Shown: one piece after another, positions 7,847 to 64,000 of the stretch
How positions within the stretch are numbered: position 1 is the stretch's first letter
How the letters are laid out: the number at the start of each line of letters is the position of its first letter
Source of the DNA: Candidatus Magasanikiibacteriota bacterium
GTDB lineage: Bacteria > Patescibacteriota > Patescibacteriia > Magasanikbacterales > GWA2-37-8
Direction of reading: 5' to 3'
Length of the DNA stretch: 64,000 nucleotides
Assembly (NCBI GenBank): GCA_036744835.1
Contig: DAIOHD010000001.1
Coordinates: 736,064 to 800,063, forward strand
Notes under the pieces: generated by a model
What the model saw: only the letters and a program-made list of their open reading frames with translations
The model's database searches: none
What the model was told of the DNA's origin: nothing
Made by a program: the position numbers and the translations under genes

Positions 7847-7962
7847 AAACTCAAAACTCAAATGTCAAAAGTCAAAACTTTGGTGTCCCTGCGGGACAAT
7901 TTAATTAGACATCGCGAAGCGATACTTTAGTTTTGAGATTTGCATTTTGAGATTTGAGATTT
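7847..7962. repeat. MITE-like element copy B (~116 bp) with imperfect terminal inverted repeats and internal gtccc..gggac hairpin
   Basis: Aligns along its length with 20487-20584: ...aaaagtcaaaactt(t/c)ggtgtccc[hairpin]gcgaagcgatacNNtagttttgagatttgagattt. Confidence 0.6.
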
Positions 7963-7969
7963 AATTTTT

Positions 7970-8866
7970 ATGTATAACGAAATTTCTTCCAACAAACGTA
8001 AATCCGTCTTTTTGATGATGATATTTATCGCATTTATTATTTTAATTGGCTATGTTTTTGATCTTGCTTATGGCAATCAAAACGGAATTTCCGGAATATT
8101 TATTGCAATTGTTTTTTCTTTGGGGATGACGGCTGTTTCTTATTTTTCTGGTGATAAAATTGCGCTCAGTACTACCGGAGCAAAACTCGTGGCTCATGAT
8201 GACAATAAATATTATTATCATTTAGTAGAAAATCTTTGCATTGCCAGTGGTACCCCGATGCCAAAACTTTATATTATAGAAGATCAAGCGATAAACGCTT
8301 TTGCTACTGGTCGCAAACCCGAAACCGCTTCTATCGCTGTGACTCGCGGAGCATTAGAAAAACTCACCAACGAAGAATTGGAAGGCGTGTTGGCTCACGA
8401 ACTGTCTCATATCAAAAATTACGACATTCGTTTTATGATGTTAGTAGCAGTATTAGTCGGCACTATCGCGATTTTTTCAGATATGATGATACGCTCCACT
8501 TTTTTTCGTAGAGGTAATAATGATAGAAATGGCGGGAGCAATCAATTGGCCGCTGTATTTATGCTTGTCGGAATTATTTTGGCCATACTTTCTCCAATAA
8601 TCGCCGAGCTTATCAAACTAGCAATCTCTCGCCAACGCGAATATCTCGCTGACGCTTCCGGCTCACTTCTAACTCGTTATCCTGAAGGATTGGCTTCTGC
8701 TTTAGAAAAAATATCAAGAGAAAATCGCCCCATGCAAAAAGCATCTTCGGCTACTGCCCATCTTTTCATTGCATCACCGTTTAGCGGTAAAAAAATTTCC
8801 TCTATGTTTTCCACTCACCCGCCGGTAGAAGAGAGAGTAAAAAGATTAAGAATGATGGGAAGTTAA
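7970..8866 (+). CDS. htpX: zinc metalloprotease HtpX (M48)
   Basis: HELSHIKNYD zinc motif, four TM segments, C-terminal HPP..ERV motif. Confidence 0.9.
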   Translation: MYNEISSNKRKSVFLMMIFIAFIILIGYVFDLAYGNQNGISGIFIAIVFSLGMTAVSYFSGDKIALSTTGAKLVAHDDNKYYYHLVENLCIASGTPMPKLYIIEDQAINAFATGRKPETASIAVTRGALEKLTNEELEGVLAHELSHIKNYDIRFMMLVAVLVGTIAIFSDMMIRSTFFRRGNNDRNGGSNQLAAVFMLVGIILAILSPIIAELIKLAISRQREYLADASGSLLTRYPEGLASALEKISRENRPMQKASSATAHLFIASPFSGKKISSMFSTHPPVEERVKRLRMMGS

Positions 8867-8884: not shown

Positions 8885-8920
8885 AAGAAGCAGGTCGATA
8901 AACGACCTGCTTTTATTTTT
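8885..8920. terminator. bidirectional rho-independent terminator (gcaggtcg-ataaa-cgacctgc with A-run and T-run) between htpX and the convergent ankyrin gene
   Basis: 8-bp perfect stem read directly. Confidence 0.6.
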
Positions 8921-9545
8921 TATGAGCTAACTCAACAAGGTAATTAGCGAGTTTCTTACGACCATTGATAAGGTCGAGCGAAAACTCGTAAACTTTTTTC
9001 TTGTCGATTTCGGGGAATTCTCCTTTGAGCCATTTGATGTTACGCTCCAGGAGCTTTTCCACGAAAACTTTATCTCCTCTTAAGGTTGTGTGTCTGGCGG
9101 CATAACACACCAAACCCACGTCCTCTGACGTAATAATTTTCGGATCCACCGCATCTTTGAGAAGCTGATTATACATCCGAACATCGCGATTGATAATTGC
9201 AGCTTCAAACAAAGTTTCACCACCACGATCTTTGAGATTGATATCCAGACCATAACGAAGTAGCAGGCAAAGACCGTAGAAAGTGCCTGTTTTTGAAAAA
9301 ATGTCACAAACCCCAAGGCGTTCATGATAAAAAATTGCATTGGCGCTGACACCCTTAAGCAATAAATCCTCTGCTTTGAAAAGTTCGCCTGCTTTGATGA
9401 GTTCTGCCAACACTGTTTCCTCCTTCGTGCATGGAGTTTTCTTTCTCTCTGAATTTTTCCCGGGGAAAAGACATTGCCAAAGTTTTTTCAACATAGTTGG
9501 CTCCCGTTTGTTGTTTTTCAAAGATCTAACATCTAATTTAAACAT
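8913..9545 (-). CDS. ankyrin-repeat protein
   Basis: Repeats of the form G.T.L..A......LL..G.D.N..D (e.g. GETLFEAAIINRDVRMYNQLLKDAVDP). Local GC visibly higher than flanking genes. Confidence 0.55.
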   Translation of the reverse strand: MFKLDVRSLKNNKREPTMLKKLWQCLFPGKNSERKKTPCTKEETVLAELIKAGELFKAEDLLLKGVSANAIFYHERLGVCDIFSKTGTFYGLCLLLRYGLDINLKDRGGETLFEAAIINRDVRMYNQLLKDAVDPKIITSEDVGLVCYAARHTTLRGDKVFVEKLLERNIKWLKGEFPEIDKKKVYEFSLDLINGRKKLANYLVELAHKK

Positions 9546-9636
9546 AAAATGAGAAGAAAGTCAAGATTTACCCCTGTGAAATAATTTTTACCTTGAGGTA
9601 AAAATTGGCGAGAAGCGCCATTTCACGGGGTTTACC

Positions 9637-9668
9637 CCATAAAAAAGAGCCCCACGTTGGGGGGCTCT
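9637..9668 (-). terminator. rho-independent terminator for the 9684-10208 gene (agagcccc-acgttgg-ggggctct, T-run on minus strand)
   Basis: 8-bp GC-rich stem followed on the minus strand by TTTTTTAT. Confidence 0.6.
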
Positions 9669-9683
9669 ATTAAAAGAAAAGTT

Positions 9684-10208
9684 CTATTTGAAAAAAACTG
9701 CTCTCTTGACGAGGAATGAAGCGAACTTGGAAAAGTTTTCTCTGTATTCCATTGCTTCGATCTCGTCTATGGCGAAACACTTATCCTGTCTCCAGTCAGC
9801 ACCGGCCTGCAAGAGATCAATGACAAAAGATTTGTCACATGTCCCCTGTTTGAAAAGCTTGATAGCCAGACAAAGAGGGCTCATTCCAAAAGAAGTTACG
9901 ATATTAACATCGGCTTTCTTCTCTTTGAGAAGGTAACCCAACAGGTTCTTATCACATTTATAAATAGCAACCTCTAGAATGGTGTGGTCGTATTTATCCT
10001 TGCGATTGATGTTGAGACCACCTTTTTCCGACAGAAGCTTCACCATTTTGTGGGCACTCCCATAAGAAAAGTAATCTTCCAAAGAGTGCTTTTTGTCTGA
10101 AAAAACTGTGTCCGCTCTGGTACCTCCCTGTAAAAGGTCTCTTACTTCGTTGAAATGACGGCTTTTCACCGCAAACCTGAGCTGTTCGCTCTTTTTTCTT
10201 TCTTTCAT
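9684..10208 (-). CDS. ankyrin-repeat protein
   Basis: HTILEVAIYKCDKNLLGYLLKEKKADVNIVTSFGMSPLCLAI and a second ANK-like unit; elevated GC. Confidence 0.55.
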   Translation of the reverse strand: MKERKKSEQLRFAVKSRHFNEVRDLLQGGTRADTVFSDKKHSLEDYFSYGSAHKMVKLLSEKGGLNINRKDKYDHTILEVAIYKCDKNLLGYLLKEKKADVNIVTSFGMSPLCLAIKLFKQGTCDKSFVIDLLQAGADWRQDKCFAIDEIEAMEYRENFSKFASFLVKRAVFFK

Positions 10209-10288
10209 CTCATCTCCTCCTGATTAAAGTTTTAGGGAACGAATAGATTATTTAAGCACAAAATAAGAAATATGTCAATATTTACCCC

Positions 10289-10318
10289 GTAAAAAACCAA
10301 GGCTTTGTGAGCCTTGGT
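10289..10318 (-). terminator. rho-independent terminator (ccaaggc-tttgtga-gccttgg, T-run on minus strand)
   Basis: 7-bp stem plus A6 tract on plus strand. Confidence 0.5.
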
Positions 10319-10324
10319 AAATAA

Positions 10325-10582
10325 CTATCTTACCGGTCTGAAAGATGGAATTTTTCTCTCCCATCTTTCCGTGATTTTACCGAATTTCAATACGCAAATG
10401 AAAATAACCTGAAACAGAAAACCCAGACAAAAACCTAAGAAAGCTTCAAACCGTTTTTTCATAAAAATCTCCCTGTTTTGGTTAAAAGGACCGGCAATAT
10501 TATAGCATAAAAAAGCCAATTTGTCAACCCGGCTTCGTCCGCCAGCTGGCGGACTACGCCGGACAAGGTCTTTATTTATCAA
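10325..10582 (-). CDS. possible small membrane protein (likely starting at internal MKKRFEAF...; ~45 aa)
   Basis: Short hydrophobic ORF with its own downstream terminator; weak. Confidence 0.2.
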   Translation of the reverse strand: MINKDLVRRSPPAGGRSRVDKLAFLCYNIAGPFNQNREIFMKKRFEAFLGFCLGFLFQVIFICVLKFGKITERWERKIPSFRPVR

Positions 10583-10624: not shown

Positions 10625-11986
10625 TTATTTTTCTATTATTTCTGTAATCTCAGCGATTTTTTCTTTAACAATTTTTTCCCCTACCCCCTCCAAATTCAAC
10701 CGCAACAACGATTCTGTATTGCTCGCCCGGACATTAAACCAAAAATCAGGATATTCAAAAGTCAAACCGTCCAAATCAGAAATCTCAGCGTCCGCAAATT
10801 TTTCTTTGAGTTTTTGCATTACCACATTTTTGTCCTCAACTTTGAAATTTATTTCTCCAGAGTGAAAATATTTTTTCAGCGGTTTTACATAATCTGCCAA
10901 AGTGATATTTTTTTCTGAAAGTTCTTGCAATAATTTCAAAGTCACCACCATTGGGGCTTCAAAAACACCATAAGGAAATTTGACGAAAAAATGTCCGGAT
11001 GATTCACCGCCAAAAACCGCTCCGGTATCAAGCATCTGTTTTTTGATAAGTGAATGTCCTACCCTAGTCACACTTGGCACTCCCCCGTTTTGTAAAATCA
11101 TATCGCGAGTAATTTTTCCCGGACGGATATCATAACAAATTGTTGCGCCCGGATTATCACGCAAGAATAATTCTGCCATAATTCCGCGCAAAATAGCGGG
11201 TTCCACCAATTCACCGGCATTATCAATAAAAAATATTCTATCACCATCACCGTCAGTTGCTATACCCAAATCTGCTTTTTCTGCCAAAACACGTTTTTTC
11301 AAATCCGCAATGTTTTCTTCTTTATATGGGTCCGCTTCGTGAGCTGGAAATGTACCATCCAAATCAAAGTTCATTTTGATAAGTTCTATTTGTGGCAAAT
11401 CAGCAAATAACTCTGTCAAATATTGCGCCCCCATGGCATTGGCTGCGTCAGCCACGATTTTCATGGGTTTAATTTTTTTCAAATCTGCAAATTTTTCTTC
11501 TTCTTTAGCCTGGGTAAATAGAATTTCTTCTTTTGAAATTACATTTCCCTTGTTTTCTGAGACAAAAAACTCGTTCTGTTCAACTATTTTTTGTAACTCT
11601 TCCATACCATTGCCTTGACCAAAAGGTTTAGCACTTTCGCGCACTAGTTTTATCCCATTATACTGAGCCGGATTGTGAGAAGCAGAAACCATCAAACCGC
11701 CATCATAACCAAAATAAGAAACGGCAAAATAAAAAGTTGGGGTGGAAACCAAACCAACATCAATTATCCTAACTCCGCTTTCAACCAAACCTTCAATCAC
11801 TTGTTTTTTTAAGCTTGGCGAGGACATCCTCATGTCAGTGCCTACCACAATAGTAAGTTGCTCTTTATCTAGCTCTTTTTTACGCATCAAAGCAAAGGCT
11901 TGAACGATTTTTTTGGCTAATTCTTCGTTTAATTCATCCGGGTAAATACCACGAATATCGTAAGCTTTGTAAATTGACATAAACAT
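10625..11986 (-). CDS. phosphoglucomutase/phosphomannomutase family protein (alpha-D-phosphohexomutase)
   Basis: Active-site SASHNPAQYNGIK, metal-binding DGDGDR, 453 aa four-domain layout. Confidence 0.85.
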   Translation of the reverse strand: MFMSIYKAYDIRGIYPDELNEELAKKIVQAFALMRKKELDKEQLTIVVGTDMRMSSPSLKKQVIEGLVESGVRIIDVGLVSTPTFYFAVSYFGYDGGLMVSASHNPAQYNGIKLVRESAKPFGQGNGMEELQKIVEQNEFFVSENKGNVISKEEILFTQAKEEEKFADLKKIKPMKIVADAANAMGAQYLTELFADLPQIELIKMNFDLDGTFPAHEADPYKEENIADLKKRVLAEKADLGIATDGDGDRIFFIDNAGELVEPAILRGIMAELFLRDNPGATICYDIRPGKITRDMILQNGGVPSVTRVGHSLIKKQMLDTGAVFGGESSGHFFVKFPYGVFEAPMVVTLKLLQELSEKNITLADYVKPLKKYFHSGEINFKVEDKNVVMQKLKEKFADAEISDLDGLTFEYPDFWFNVRASNTESLLRLNLEGVGEKIVKEKIAEITEIIEK

Positions 11987-17787: not shown

Positions 17788-19131
17788 ATGAAAAAAATAA
17801 TTTTATTTTTATTTTTTATAATTTTATTATCCAAACCAACTATAGTTTCTGGTGCTGGCGGAGCTATTTATCAATGTCGCTGTAACGCAAAAGAAGTTGT
17901 TGTAAATTCTGCTGGAATAAGTCAAATGATAAATCTACTAGGTATAACTTTCAAAATGGATGACATAGAAAACCAAAGTATTCTGGGTTGTACTAAAAAA
18001 TTTGTAGAAGAACACCCAAAGGCAATGGACATATCATGTGTTTATGAACCGCTTTTGGAAATGACCGAACTTTCAGATGAATTTAAATTACAAGCGCCTG
18101 ACCTAAAAGTAAGAATACCTGGATTTGACAAATTTAGCGATCCCCCTACCCAATGGGACAAAGAAGGAAACGTTTATCTGCCTTGGATTGGAGAATATAT
18201 TCAAGCTATTTATAATTTTGGTTTAGTTGCTATCAGTATTTTAGCAGTTTTGATGATTATTGTTTCCGGTATCAAAGTGATGATGTCCGGTCTCGGAGGA
18301 GAGAAAAAAGAAGCTTACAAACGTATTGCTCAAGCGGTTATCGGTTTGGCTTTAGCCTGGAGCTCTTATACGATTCTTTTTATTATCAATCCTAATTTAT
18401 TAAAATTAAAAAGTTTGCAAATTCAATTGGTGCAACCGATAGATATCCCCGACGATTATATGCCGGAAATTCCAGACTCTCCCGCCGATGTGCCACCACA
18501 TGATTTAGTTTCTCTTGATGGTTATAATAAATTTCTTGTAACTAATGCTACTAATGAAGCTTTTAAAAAAGTAAAAGAAGAACTCAAAAAAATAGGCGAA
18601 ATCGGCGTTAATAGTGCTTATCGCGGGCCGGGAGAACAATATTCTTTAATGGTTAAACTTTGTGGTTGTCCTAATCCCCCACCACAAAATGCAGTAAAAT
18701 CTGACTGGGAAAAACTTTGTACAAATTATAAAGGGTGCAATGTAGCAATGGTGGTAGAAATAAAAAACGGAATTATGCAAGCGCCGAAAGTATCTCATTT
18801 TTCCGGCCAAGCCCTAGATGCACAAATGTCAAATAAACCCACTACTATACCTTGTAGCGATAGTAGCGACCCCAATATTGTTCTAAGTGATGGGGTGGCT
18901 AAATTTACAAGAGATGGCAATACGTGGAATGTGGGGTATTGCATTTCAAAAGAACAACAACTACTGATAAAAGCCATGTTAAACAACGGTTTCTGTGTTT
19001 TACTTGGAAATTCTAAAAATCTTCGTGAATCTTGGCATTTTCAATATCAAATCTTTAATGATAATTGTGTAGGTAAAGATCATGCTAATATTAAAAAACT
19101 TTATTACGTTCAAAATGACGAAGAAAAATAA
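17788..19131 (+). CDS. secreted fusion protein: Cys-rich T4SS-pilin-like domain (VirB2/TrbC-like hydrophobic hairpin) plus C-terminal M15 (VanY-type) zinc D,D-carboxypeptidase / peptidoglycan hydrolase domain
   Basis: Signal peptide MKKIILFLFFIILLSKPTIVSG. Hairpin AIYNFGLVAISILAVLMIIVSGIKVMMSGLGG..AVIGLALAWSSYTILFIINP. LAS-peptidase motifs SAYRGPGEQ, VSHFSGQALD (SxHxxGxAxD) and ESWH (ExxH). Confidence 0.7.
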   Translation: MKKIILFLFFIILLSKPTIVSGAGGAIYQCRCNAKEVVVNSAGISQMINLLGITFKMDDIENQSILGCTKKFVEEHPKAMDISCVYEPLLEMTELSDEFKLQAPDLKVRIPGFDKFSDPPTQWDKEGNVYLPWIGEYIQAIYNFGLVAISILAVLMIIVSGIKVMMSGLGGEKKEAYKRIAQAVIGLALAWSSYTILFIINPNLLKLKSLQIQLVQPIDIPDDYMPEIPDSPADVPPHDLVSLDGYNKFLVTNATNEAFKKVKEELKKIGEIGVNSAYRGPGEQYSLMVKLCGCPNPPPQNAVKSDWEKLCTNYKGCNVAMVVEIKNGIMQAPKVSHFSGQALDAQMSNKPTTIPCSDSSDPNIVLSDGVAKFTRDGNTWNVGYCISKEQQLLIKAMLNNGFCVLLGNSKNLRESWHFQYQIFNDNCVGKDHANIKKLYYVQNDEEK

Positions 19132-61624: not shown

Positions 61625-61960
61625 TTATTTACGGTCGCGCTGTGAGATTAAGACTGTAAGCCAGTCTCTTAGATATCTATTAAAACTCTCATCTTCGGTC
61701 AAAATGATATTTTGAGGAAAACAGTAGATTGTATTTCTCTCAAAATTTTTTATCTTCTGGCCGTCTTTCACCTCTACCATTTTTTTGTTGTTTTGATGAT
61801 TTTCCGAGCTTACTATTATATTTTGAGGAAAATAATAAACAGTGCCCATCTCAAGTTTTTCTAACTTATCACCTTTTTCCACTTTTACAAACCTAGTCAG
61901 ACTCTTTTTATCACCTTCACAGCCCTTTGAATCTTGGGTAACCATGATAACCTCCGACAA
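61625..61960 (-). CDS. hypothetical protein with internal tandem repeat (TVYYFPQNIIVSSENHQ / TIYCFPQNIILTEDESF)
   Basis: 111-aa ORF; duplicated ~35-aa unit visible in translation. Confidence 0.4.
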   Translation of the reverse strand: MSEVIMVTQDSKGCEGDKKSLTRFVKVEKGDKLEKLEMGTVYYFPQNIIVSSENHQNNKKMVEVKDGQKIKNFERNTIYCFPQNIILTEDESFNRYLRDWLTVLISQRDRK

Positions 61961-62362: not shown

Positions 62363-63661
62363 CTACAGCAAAGGTACCTGTCTGAATTTATTTATCTCTT
62401 TCTCCCCCACCAACCCTATCTTCCCATACACCCCATCATATCCCGGAGACAGATCTACCCTGCCAGTACGCATATTATTGATAGCTAACCACAGCTCCGG
62501 ATATTTTGTATGTTGCAAAATTTCCTTTTCACCAGCTTTTGTCAAAATATAAAATTCCGAACCGATATTTTTGATCAGATGTTCGTATTCGGCTACAACT
62601 TTTTTGGATTTGGGGCCAACTTCCAAAATTTGCGATAAAATTTCCAGGAGCGGGACAATATATTTGTGCGGAATAAATTTTTCCCACGGAATTTCGCTCA
62701 CTTCCCTACTGGCCAAATCATCCACCCTGTGTTCCACCCCTATGACCAGAGGTTTTTTGCATTTCGGGCAAATATTTTTTTCTTTCTTGCTTTGTTTGGG
62801 AGATAAACAAACACCGCAAACCGCATGACCGTCGTATTGGTACATTCCTTCTTCTGGATAAAATTCAATTGTATATAAAAACTTTTTTCTATCTCCAGTA
62901 AAAATTATTTTTTTGATTTCATCATAAGTAATTTTGTTTTCGTCGGCAAAAGAAAAAACATTTGCTTCACGTCCTAGTTTATCCAAACTATGGGCATCAG
63001 AATTTGATACCAAAGTTATTTTATCTAGTTTTTCCAAGCGATGGTTCATGTTTGGGTCACTACTTAACCCTGTTTCTATCGCACAAATTTGGGGAGTGAG
63101 CTCTTCAAAACATTCTTCCAAACTGTCATAACCGGATTTGGAACCGAAAATAGCATACCAAGGAGTCCAGGCGTGCGCCGGAATCATAAAACATCTTTTG
63201 TCGGCTTTCAAAATCAGCTGTAAAAGTTTTTTTGCCGACATGCCGATAATCGGCCGGCCATCGGATCGGCGATTCAAACCCAGTTTATCAAAATCATCAT
63301 TGATTTTTTCCACCGCCTGCAAACTCGGCGCGAAAATGAGCAAGTGTACCCGACGGGTTTTATCTTTGTCTTTATAAATACAAGAAATTTCCGTACCAAG
63401 TATGAAGCGTGTCGGATTTTTCCCCTCCTTTTGTGAAGAGGAGGGCGAGGGTGGAGTCTTTAATTCAAAAAGTCCGCTATTACCAATTTCTTTCAATTCT
63501 TTTTGAATATGTTCAAACCATTTCGGGTGGGTAAAATCACCGGTGGCCACAATATCAATCCCTTTTTTGAGACACATGGCGGCAATTTTTGGCAATTCCA
63601 AATCCGGGCTACAAGCCCGTGAATATTTGGAGTGGATATGTAAATCAAGAATTTTTTCCAT
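62363..63661 (-). CDS. PHP-domain phosphoesterase with internal C4 zinc finger (endonuclease Q-like family)
   Basis: LDLHIHSKYSRACSP PHP N-terminus, ...GDFTHPKW..., later AHAWTPW, NSDAHS, and CGVC...CPKC finger. Contains low-complexity insert TPPSPSSSQKEG (see findings). Confidence 0.6.
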   Translation of the reverse strand: MEKILDLHIHSKYSRACSPDLELPKIAAMCLKKGIDIVATGDFTHPKWFEHIQKELKEIGNSGLFELKTPPSPSSSQKEGKNPTRFILGTEISCIYKDKDKTRRVHLLIFAPSLQAVEKINDDFDKLGLNRRSDGRPIIGMSAKKLLQLILKADKRCFMIPAHAWTPWYAIFGSKSGYDSLEECFEELTPQICAIETGLSSDPNMNHRLEKLDKITLVSNSDAHSLDKLGREANVFSFADENKITYDEIKKIIFTGDRKKFLYTIEFYPEEGMYQYDGHAVCGVCLSPKQSKKEKNICPKCKKPLVIGVEHRVDDLASREVSEIPWEKFIPHKYIVPLLEILSQILEVGPKSKKVVAEYEHLIKNIGSEFYILTKAGEKEILQHTKYPELWLAINNMRTGRVDLSPGYDGVYGKIGLVGEKEINKFRQVPLL

Positions 63662-64000
63662 AATCAAAATCATTGTATTCCAACACCATTTCCTTATCCC
63701 CAGTCGCTGTTTTGAAAGTCAGTTTATCTGCAAATAATGCAATGCTTTTATCAGAAAGTGGTTTTTCAGCTCCATATTTAATATCACCAATCAATGGATG
63801 GCCAAGATGTGCAAATTGCACACGGATTTGATGATGGCGTCCGGTTTTGAGATTTATTTTTACCAAAGTATTTCCTTTTATTTCTTTTACCACTTCATAA
63901 TCCAATTCCGCGCGTTGACTGCCAGCAACTTCTCTATCAAAAATTTCCGCTTTATTATTTTTTTCATTATGTTTGAGAAAATTTATCAGCGTGCCTTTTT
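63645..64000 (-). CDS. RluA-family pseudouridine synthase, C-terminal part (gene continues beyond window end)
   Basis: TGRHHQIRVQFAHLGHPLIGDIKYG motif; ORF open to window edge. Confidence 0.75.
   Translation of the reverse strand, partial: KGTLINFLKHNEKNNKAEIFDREVAGSQRAELDYEVVKEIKGNTLVKINLKTGRHHQIRVQFAHLGHPLIGDIKYGAEKPLSDKSIALFADKLTFKTATGDKEMVLEYNDFDYGKNS

Follow-up and report, generated by a model that had tools for sequence, protein, structure and literature searches.

A tandem pair of ankyrin-repeat genes in a slot of varying content in a Magasanikbacteria-like Patescibacterium

Among the ankyrin-repeat (ANK) proteins described from bacteria, Imm-ank proteins are stand-alone immunity proteins in the polyimmunity loci of polymorphic toxin systems (PMC3482391), and the Bdellovibrio protein Bd3460 is a self-protection inhibitor of secreted cell-wall endopeptidases (PMC4686830). 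ANK proteins of sponge and amoeba symbionts are said to modulate phagocytosis (Nguyen et al. 2014, as cited in PMC12455944). Here we analyse two neighbouring ANK genes, ANK_A and ANK_B, in a 64,000-nucleotide (nt) stretch of DNA from a Candidatus Magasanikiibacteriota bacterium (the window). The organism is a Magasanikbacteria-like Patescibacterium; its small genome had been expected from the letters of the window alone, and that original prediction had also taken the genes for horizontally acquired effectors acting on a host. We instead consider it probable that the two genes are ancient tandem paralogues that encode pure ANK binders, have long resided in a slot of varying content between htpX and a phosphohexomutase gene, and serve as accessory factors that bind a non-self protein. 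The genes and their signals are as follows (−, minus strand; SD, Shine–Dalgarno sequence).

8888–8912 (−): intrinsic terminator of ANK_A, a 10-bp stem with 6 GC pairs followed by a T-run
8913–9494 (−): ANK_A coding sequence, 193 amino acids (aa), placed from the list of open reading frames (ORFs), SD and promoter conservation and the gene calls of relatives
9501–9505 (−): SD of ANK_A, GGGAG, 6 nt upstream of ATG 9494; AGGAG in orthologues
9535–9564 (−): sigma-70-type promoter of ANK_A, TTGACT, spacer of 17–18 nt, TTAAAT/TAAATT
9646–9668 (−): intrinsic terminator of ANK_B, an 8-bp stem with 6 GC pairs followed by TTTTTT
9684–10208 (−): ANK_B coding sequence, a stand-alone ankyrin-repeat protein of 174 aa with a canonical repeat at residues 75–105
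10216–10221 (−): SD of ANK_B, AGGAGG, 7 nt upstream of the ATG
10250–10278 (−): sigma-70-type promoter of ANK_B, TTGACA, spacer of 17 nt, TTAAAT, with GGGGTAAAT upstream

Both proteins do consist of ankyrin-type repeats, as first proposed. ANK_B passes the Pfam cut-offs for Ank_2 (45.1 bits, cut-off 27.3; E = 1.6e-11), Ank (25.3 bits, cut-off 21.1) and Ank_4 (29.6 bits, cut-off 22.7). ANK_A alone reaches 12.7 bits, under every Pfam ANK threshold; it aligns with ANK_B at E = 3e-13 (the two are paralogues with 30% identity), and the joint family profile matches 253 ANK chains of the Protein Data Bank (PDB) at E ≤ 1e-6, with ankyrin-1/2 at E = 4e-35. Structure models of the ANK proteins have the stacked helix–turn–helix plus hairpin architecture of an ankyrin solenoid and superpose on designed ankyrin-repeat proteins (DARPins) and ankyrins; the structural matches include the gankyrin-type ANK protein 2dvw, a class that binds AAA ATPases. 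Each protein is nothing but a short ankyrin-repeat solenoid of approximately 4–5 helix-pair units. ANK_A begins with 16–22 disordered, Lys-rich residues (predicted local distance difference test (pLDDT) <50 for residues 1–16; averages of 40 and 43 for the first two 10-residue blocks), and approximately five such units come after them. Fold and repeat signature are thus those of ankyrin-repeat proteins in general (Ank_2, PF12796; Ank, PF00023; DARPin-like solenoids of 4–5 repeats), but the repeats here are highly degenerate, with one canonical repeat recognisable per protein, a family-specific insertion in repeat 2 ('F...L.D.FS') and a family-specific C-terminal unit ('W...ID...E...A..L'). By inspection, the parts best conserved among alleles are hairpin and first-helix residues ('KD.YDHT.LE.AIY', 'DRGGETLFEAAI'), and variation gathers in the second helices and the loops between repeats. 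Such a conserved hairpin and first-helix face speaks for a target that is itself conserved and not for an arms race. One allelic difference in ANK_B is an in-frame tandem duplication of 7 aa (QGTCDKS QGTCDKS) at residues ~121–134 of P0003, the ANK_B of the related contigs L001–L005; it falls in the loop ahead of the fourth helix pair and lengthens the protein from 174 to 181 aa.

Two minus-strand genes of 210 and 174 aa had been read at this locus. Both ORFs exist, and the 210-aa start is probably wrong. The longest ANK_A frame (8913–9545) opens at ATG 9545, a position that falls within the −10 region of a conserved promoter, whose two hexamers do not vary across five orthologous loci. An SD precedes ATG 9494, and 193 aa is the length of ANK_A in most gene calls of relatives (one assembly, L020, has 166 aa). 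In P0008, the ANK_A N-terminus has an in-frame indel of two codons, indicating that this segment is coding. On these four grounds we set ANK_A at 8913–9494, the more likely of the two readings. The promoter of ANK_B is likewise invariant among its orthologues, and hairpins with T-runs follow each gene, in agreement with the strong terminators that had been ascribed to both; the palindrome around the ANK_A terminator (8886–8914) doubles as the plus-strand terminator of htpX. ANK_A and ANK_B are thus predicted to be separate transcription units, each with its own promoter, SD and terminator, and the strength of these signals makes them look well expressed. A 59-nt direct repeat (family D1; 73% identity) joins the promoter and 5′ untranslated segments of the two genes and is far better conserved than their coding regions, which points to a tandem duplication that took in the promoter and to a putative common regulation of the pair.

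In the window, the motif GGGGTAAAT occurs only at the two ANK promoters. As a dedicated operator common to both it was weakened as a candidate, given that the ANK_A copy is the inverted-repeat end of a mini-element that L001 and L004 lack at this site.

9570–9631 (−): 62-nt palindromic mini-element, downstream of the ANK_B terminator and upstream of the ANK_A promoter, bounded by the inverted repeats ACCCCGTGAAAT...ATTTCACAGGGGT

The element has a fold energy of −30.5 kcal/mol (z = −5.4), two internal hairpins and, at its ends, 12-nt terminal inverted repeats ACCCYGTGAAAT...ATTTCACRGGGT. In L006 (~7858–7925) and L007 (~10423–10490) it is placed upstream of ANK_B, and further copies in L021 (1697–1752) and L022 (658–717) occupy unrelated sites, that of L022 being syntenic to ~61.5 kb of the window, where the window has no element. 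Such placement at differing intergenic sites of closely related genomes, between terminators and promoters, makes it look like a mobile element of this lineage akin to miniature inverted-repeat transposable elements (MITEs) or repetitive extragenic palindromes (REPs).

The family stands apart from other ANK proteins. An exhaustive profile search of 5.8 billion proteins returned 72,208 generic ANK proteins, which were then re-scored per domain: family members scored 173–299 bits and all other ANK proteins ≤47 bits. The members amount to 4 + 4 + 2 clusters, plus P0072, and fall into three subfamilies (A, B and C) with 27–35% identity between them. Neither single-sequence nor profile searches of these proteins yielded a nameable donor or sister group, and a family hidden Markov model (HMM) run against the 598 ORF segments of the window found no further paralogues. 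The family thus appears to be a discrete, very small and lineage-specific orphan subfamily. All members with genomic context occupy one slot between pgm/pmm and htpX in a genus-level clade of Magasanikbacteria-like Patescibacteria (L001–L008, L017, L018 and L023–L029), and the flanks of this slot (clpB/C–nudix–pgm on one side, htpX–lemA–rseP–pheST on the other) are syntenic at 76–95% aa identity. Its content varies as follows ('tiny' denotes a small membrane ORF, and X188, X126/128 and X201 are unrelated ORFs).

Window and L001–L005: tiny, ANK_B, ANK_A
L006, L007 and L024: X188, tiny, ANK_B′ (58% identity), ANK_A; plus X201 in L006
L017 and L018: tiny, X126, ANK_A′ (75% identity)
L008 and L023: tiny, X126/128, ANK_C (about 30–36% identity to ANK_A and ANK_B)

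Turnover therefore places either ANK_B or an unrelated gene of 126–128 aa at one position and either ANK_A or ANK_C at the other, with optional extra ORFs; the right edge of the slot is variable too. X188, X126/128 and X201 match no immunity (Imm) or toxin family of Pfam and have no relative in the PDB; X188 and X128 match no Pfam family at all. On the low-coverage contig L026 (2196–6353), der and lytR-cpsA-psr take the place of htpX after ANK_A, although in the window they lie 14–17 kb away; either the genome was rearranged there, with a breakpoint at the edge of the slot, or the contig is a chimera of the assembly.

Sequence divergence indicates long residence. Between the window and L001/L004, synonymous divergence (dS) is 0.52–0.83 for ANK_A and ANK_B and 0.45–1.6 for the flanks, and the ratio of nonsynonymous to synonymous divergence (dN/dS) is 0.06–0.11 for the ANK genes and 0.06–0.18 for the flanks. 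Values of dS in the range of the flanks together with low dN/dS indicate that the ANK genes are functional, long-resident and co-diverging with the genomic backbone rather than recently imported; they are old, conserved in the lineage and under purifying selection. A recent genomic island was rejected on the same dS values, on synteny kept in more than ten related contigs and on the absence of mobility genes: we found no integrase at the slot and no link to a phage (its only repeat is the 62-nt mini-element), the nearest tRNA is 12 kb off and an Rfam scan of the slot returned nothing. A phage origin was likewise discarded, with no relatives on IMG/VR viral contigs and with structural matches in BFVD limited to generic giant-virus and poxvirus ANK proteins at E values of 1e-3 or weaker. 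The proposed horizontal acquisition is thus not supported as a recent event. Given co-divergence and purifying selection, any transfer must be old, and a horizontal origin is plausible but unproven.

The composition of the pair is nevertheless unusual, as the original prediction had noticed. The GC content of 8913–10208 is 40.8%, where the window as a whole averages 35.3%; no more than 0.5% of windows of equal size are as GC-rich, and the maximum of the window lies inside the ANK stretch. The elevation is therefore significant, although the stated contrast of low 40s against low 30s was overdrawn, with flanks at 35.5–36.3% and adjacent genes at 37–39%. GC content at third codon positions (GC3) is 0.41 in ANK_A and 0.48 in ANK_B (against 0.27 ± 0.056; ranks 1 and 2 of 64 genes), and by codon-usage likelihood the two genes (z = −7.0 and −8.7, respectively) are the most deviant of the 64, the next having z = −4.5. 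The shift favours TTC, CTC/CTT, TAC, ATC, AAG, GAC and GAG. The next outliers are two orphan genes without a Pfam family, at 61625–61945 (−; 106 aa, z = −3.8, GC3 0.35) and 62363–63673 (−; 436 aa, z = −4.5, GC3 0.39).

Raised GC3 is a property of every slot gene in the subclade of the window (ANK_A, 0.43–0.46; ANK_B, 0.47–0.48; X188, 0.43; X201, 0.45) and is lower outside it (ANK_A′ of L017, 0.32; ANK_C of L008, 0.35). A slot-wide import of alleles or a recombination-linked GC bias explains this subclade-limited pattern no less well than would a foreign source for the family. Recombination has left further traces. L001 and L006 share 99.7% identity over 5.8 kb up to mid-pgm, after which identity drops to 96%, 80% (over the ANK genes), 87% and 92%, a pattern that reads as a homologous-recombination mosaic with the ANK region as its most divergent part. 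The comparison of L001 with L007 gives the same picture, of strains near-identical up to mid-pgm and 80–92% identical past it. ANK_B of L006/L007 is 58% identical where the flanks are ~90%; ANK_B exists as two deep alleles, and in L008, L017 and L023 it is missing, with an unrelated gene in its place. We therefore weighed the possibility that the GC elevation is a by-product of frequent recombination at the slot, through GC-biased gene conversion or repeated import of alleles from slightly GC-richer sister lineages, and no sign of foreignness. The mosaic with its breakpoint in pgm and its greatest divergence over the ANK genes, the discordance of ANK_B alleles with their flanks, the confinement of high GC3 to slot genes of the recombining subclade and the shifting of the mobile palindromic element within the slot all speak for it; on the other side, few genomes were compared, and an ancient transfer whose traces were then ameliorated in only some lineages yields an identical pattern. 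We regard this account as a serious one, though we would not bet on it. An old transfer, slot alleles imported from GC-richer relatives and a GC bias that comes with recombination may each account for the composition. The pair would go back either to an old horizontal acquisition or to a slot allele taken over from a relative richer in GC, and would since have been inherited vertically, with occasional homologous replacement of alleles.

The surroundings of the pair were as anticipated in that the ANK genes lie with a tiny membrane ORF between htpX and a phosphohexomutase gene.

7970–8866 (plus strand): htpX, the gene of an M48 zinc metalloprotease, which forms the conserved left border of the slot
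10296–10318 (−): terminator belonging to the tiny ORF
10325–10462 (−): tiny ORF of 45 aa, one transmembrane (TM) helix and a basic tail
10499–10527 (−): tiny-ORF promoter, a perfect TTGACA-17-TATAAT sigma-70 consensus with TG upstream
10529–10562 (no strand): GC-rich, near-perfect palindrome of 34 bp with core GTCCGCCAGCTGGCGGAC, directly upstream of the tiny-ORF −35 box and found once in the window
10625–11986 (−): phosphohexomutase of the phosphomannomutase/phosphoglucomutase type, the conserved right border of the slot

The tiny ORF is conserved at 82–84% aa identity in L001–L007 and has positional analogues of 43–44 aa in L008, L017 and L023. Nearly all architectures in which this part is covered begin with such a gene, preceded in L006 and L007 by the extra ORF X188. 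A search for a family match to it found none; its size and architecture recall small membrane toxins or regulators. The 34-bp palindrome may serve as an operator or may be a further REP-like element. The remainder of the window is core genome, including pheST, rseP, a clpB/C-type ATPase gene, radA, recG, der, pth, dprA, topA, relA/spoT, parAB and a ribosomal protein cluster. Between pheS and pheT, L024 (11395–11766) and L025 (5631–6002) carry a 123-aa gene of the 23S_rRNA_IVP family (PF05635), where the window has a gap of only 134 bp.

Neither ANK protein has a signal peptide or hydrophobic segment (Kyte–Doolittle, 19-residue window, threshold 1.6), and the N-terminus of ANK_A, MLKKLWQCLFPG, read from the sequence, has too short an h-region and no lipobox. 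Because they have no catalytic domain, membrane segment or Sec signal, ANK_A and ANK_B would have no activity other than to bind a specific partner protein in the ANK groove, as accessory factors of an episymbiotic lifestyle whose partner would be a non-self protein. Among the roles considered, delivery into or onto a partner cell as effectors ranks first, though it is less likely than not; neutralisation of a toxin or enzyme in the cytoplasm comes close behind and an endogenous adaptor function is rather unlikely, with other functions taking what remains. Several points weigh against the reading of the pair as binders of a non-self protein. No partner, secretion apparatus or toxin gene is linked to the ANK genes; the sole secretion-related feature nearby is a T4SS_pilin domain, below its threshold, in a gene 8 kb off that resembles a peptidoglycan hydrolase. 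The conserved binding face was drawn from 5–7 sequences compared by eye, and composition was judged against the 64-kb window. Strong purifying selection and a core-like position would suit an endogenous housekeeping adaptor too. The sample accessions, looked up in the literature for a habitat or host, gave no matches.

The closest functional rival holds that the proteins are cytoplasmic ANK inhibitors that neutralise a toxin or lytic enzyme, either the symbiont's own or one injected by a host or competitors, the slot being a small heterogeneous 'polyimmunity' locus. For this there are precedents in Imm-ank (PMC3482391) and Bd3460 (PMC4686830), the tandem paralogues sit amid unrelated small ORFs that come and go, the missing signal peptide suits toxins that act in the cytoplasm and the putative binding face is conserved. 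Yet there is no adjacent toxin gene, and the accompanying ORFs X188, X126/128 and X201 match neither an Imm family nor a PDB chain. The PADLOC match to the candidate anti-phage defence system PDC-M72A was set aside, as only profile positions 206–320 of 392 align (21–29 bits) and these cover the ANK region. The one polymorphic hydrolase in reach is the following.

17788–19131 (plus strand): cell-wall hydrolase-like gene, 447 aa, with a signal peptide and a TrbC/VirB2-like two-TM module of the T4SS_pilin type

Its T4SS_pilin domain scores 25.8 bits against a cut-off of 26.6, and its C-terminus carries LAS/M15 VanY-like motifs by eye (SAYRG..., SHFSGQALD, ESWHF), where Pfam finds no M15 or VanY domain. 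Orthologues lie at the ends of L001/L002, L004 and L017, with Amidase_2 in place of this C-terminus in L004 and L017; such a domain swap marks the gene as a polymorphic cell-wall hydrolase. As the target of ANK immunity it was rejected, being 8 kb off and extracytoplasmic and not co-varying with the ANK genes: L001 (M15/VanY) and L004 (Amidase_2) share an identical ANK_B. We consider immunity doubtful on balance.

The ANK proteins might alternatively bind proteins of their own cell, for example as a scaffold for the ClpB/ClpC-type ATPase, HtpX, RseP or the tiny membrane protein. Purifying selection as strong as that on the housekeeping flanks, strong and constitutive-looking promoters and SD sites, a tiny TM ORF in nearly all covered slot variants, proteostasis genes as neighbours and the structural match to an AAA ATPase-binding gankyrin-type protein would all be in keeping with such an adaptor, but the family is confined to one genus-level clade, an unrelated gene replaces ANK_B in L008, L017 and L023, the neighbours are on different strands in separate transcription units and the two genes depart from core genes in their codon usage. 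We judge an adaptor improbable. Least probable of all is that the pair consists of exported effectors that bind host proteins and entered on a fresh genomic island: for all the episymbiotic lifestyle of Patescibacteria, the fact that ANK proteins are typical symbiont effectors, the atypical composition, the disordered basic N-terminus of ANK_A and the T4SS_pilin-like gene 8 kb away, no signal peptide, linked secretion gene or link to an integrase, tRNA or phage was found, the genes occupy one locus in all relatives with dS as in the flanks and low dN/dS, the NCBIfam T4SS_AnkG model (Dot/Icm AnkG) scores 36.1 bits against a cut-off of 500 with only the ANK region aligned, and the hosts of Patescibacteria known so far are mostly prokaryotes, in which ANK effectors are, to our knowledge, undocumented.

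A bolder extension of binding to a non-self protein would make the pgm–htpX slot an 'interaction islet', with the ANK paralogues as specificity determinants of a symbiont–host or symbiont–competitor interface. The proteins would reach the inside of a partner, prokaryote or protist, by delivery that needs no Sec signal, or would neutralise the toxins of that partner, and strains would swap slot alleles by homologous recombination as they track their partners. We hold this to be unlikely but, if true, no earlier ANK-based host-interaction module would have been described from Patescibacteria. This group accounts for a large part of bacterial diversity, and very few of its host-attachment proteins are known; a lineage-restricted pair of pure binders in a recombining slot is therefore a concrete and cheap candidate for finding a host or a toxin target. 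As it stands, the locus is an ordinary case of bacterial ANK-repeat genes with atypical codon usage, with evidence against a freshly acquired effector island.

Compared with the ANK effectors of intracellular bacteria (the Dot/Icm Anks of Legionella and Coxiella, such as AnkG/LegA7, and the ANK proteins of Wolbachia, Anaplasma and Orientia), the pair shares the occurrence of an ANK domain in a small-genome, host-dependent bacterium and genes that are lineage-specific, compositionally atypical and accessory. The proteins here are, however, much shorter, have no second domain and are under strong purifying selection, no type IV secretion system (T4SS) is linked to their genes within the 64-kb window and the host is probably not a eukaryote. 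The ANK proteins of sponge and amoeba symbionts are likewise symbiont-encoded and thought to be horizontally acquired, but they act on eukaryotic phagocytes, where no eukaryotic host is indicated here, and are unrelated in sequence beyond the repeat itself. With Imm-ank, Bd3460 and the ANK-containing Tli proteins of type VI secretion systems (T6SS), the differences are the absence here of an adjacent cognate toxin or hydrolase gene and of any known Imm family among the neighbours and, for Bd3460, the missing signal peptide. What the pair may have in common with them is the use of small stand-alone ANK binders in inter-bacterial conflict, by a bacterium that attacks other prokaryotes; here these binders are tandem paralogues in a locus of heterogeneous small genes. 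ANK_A and ANK_B are lineage-specific bacterial ANK binders, and as such are of a kind already known.

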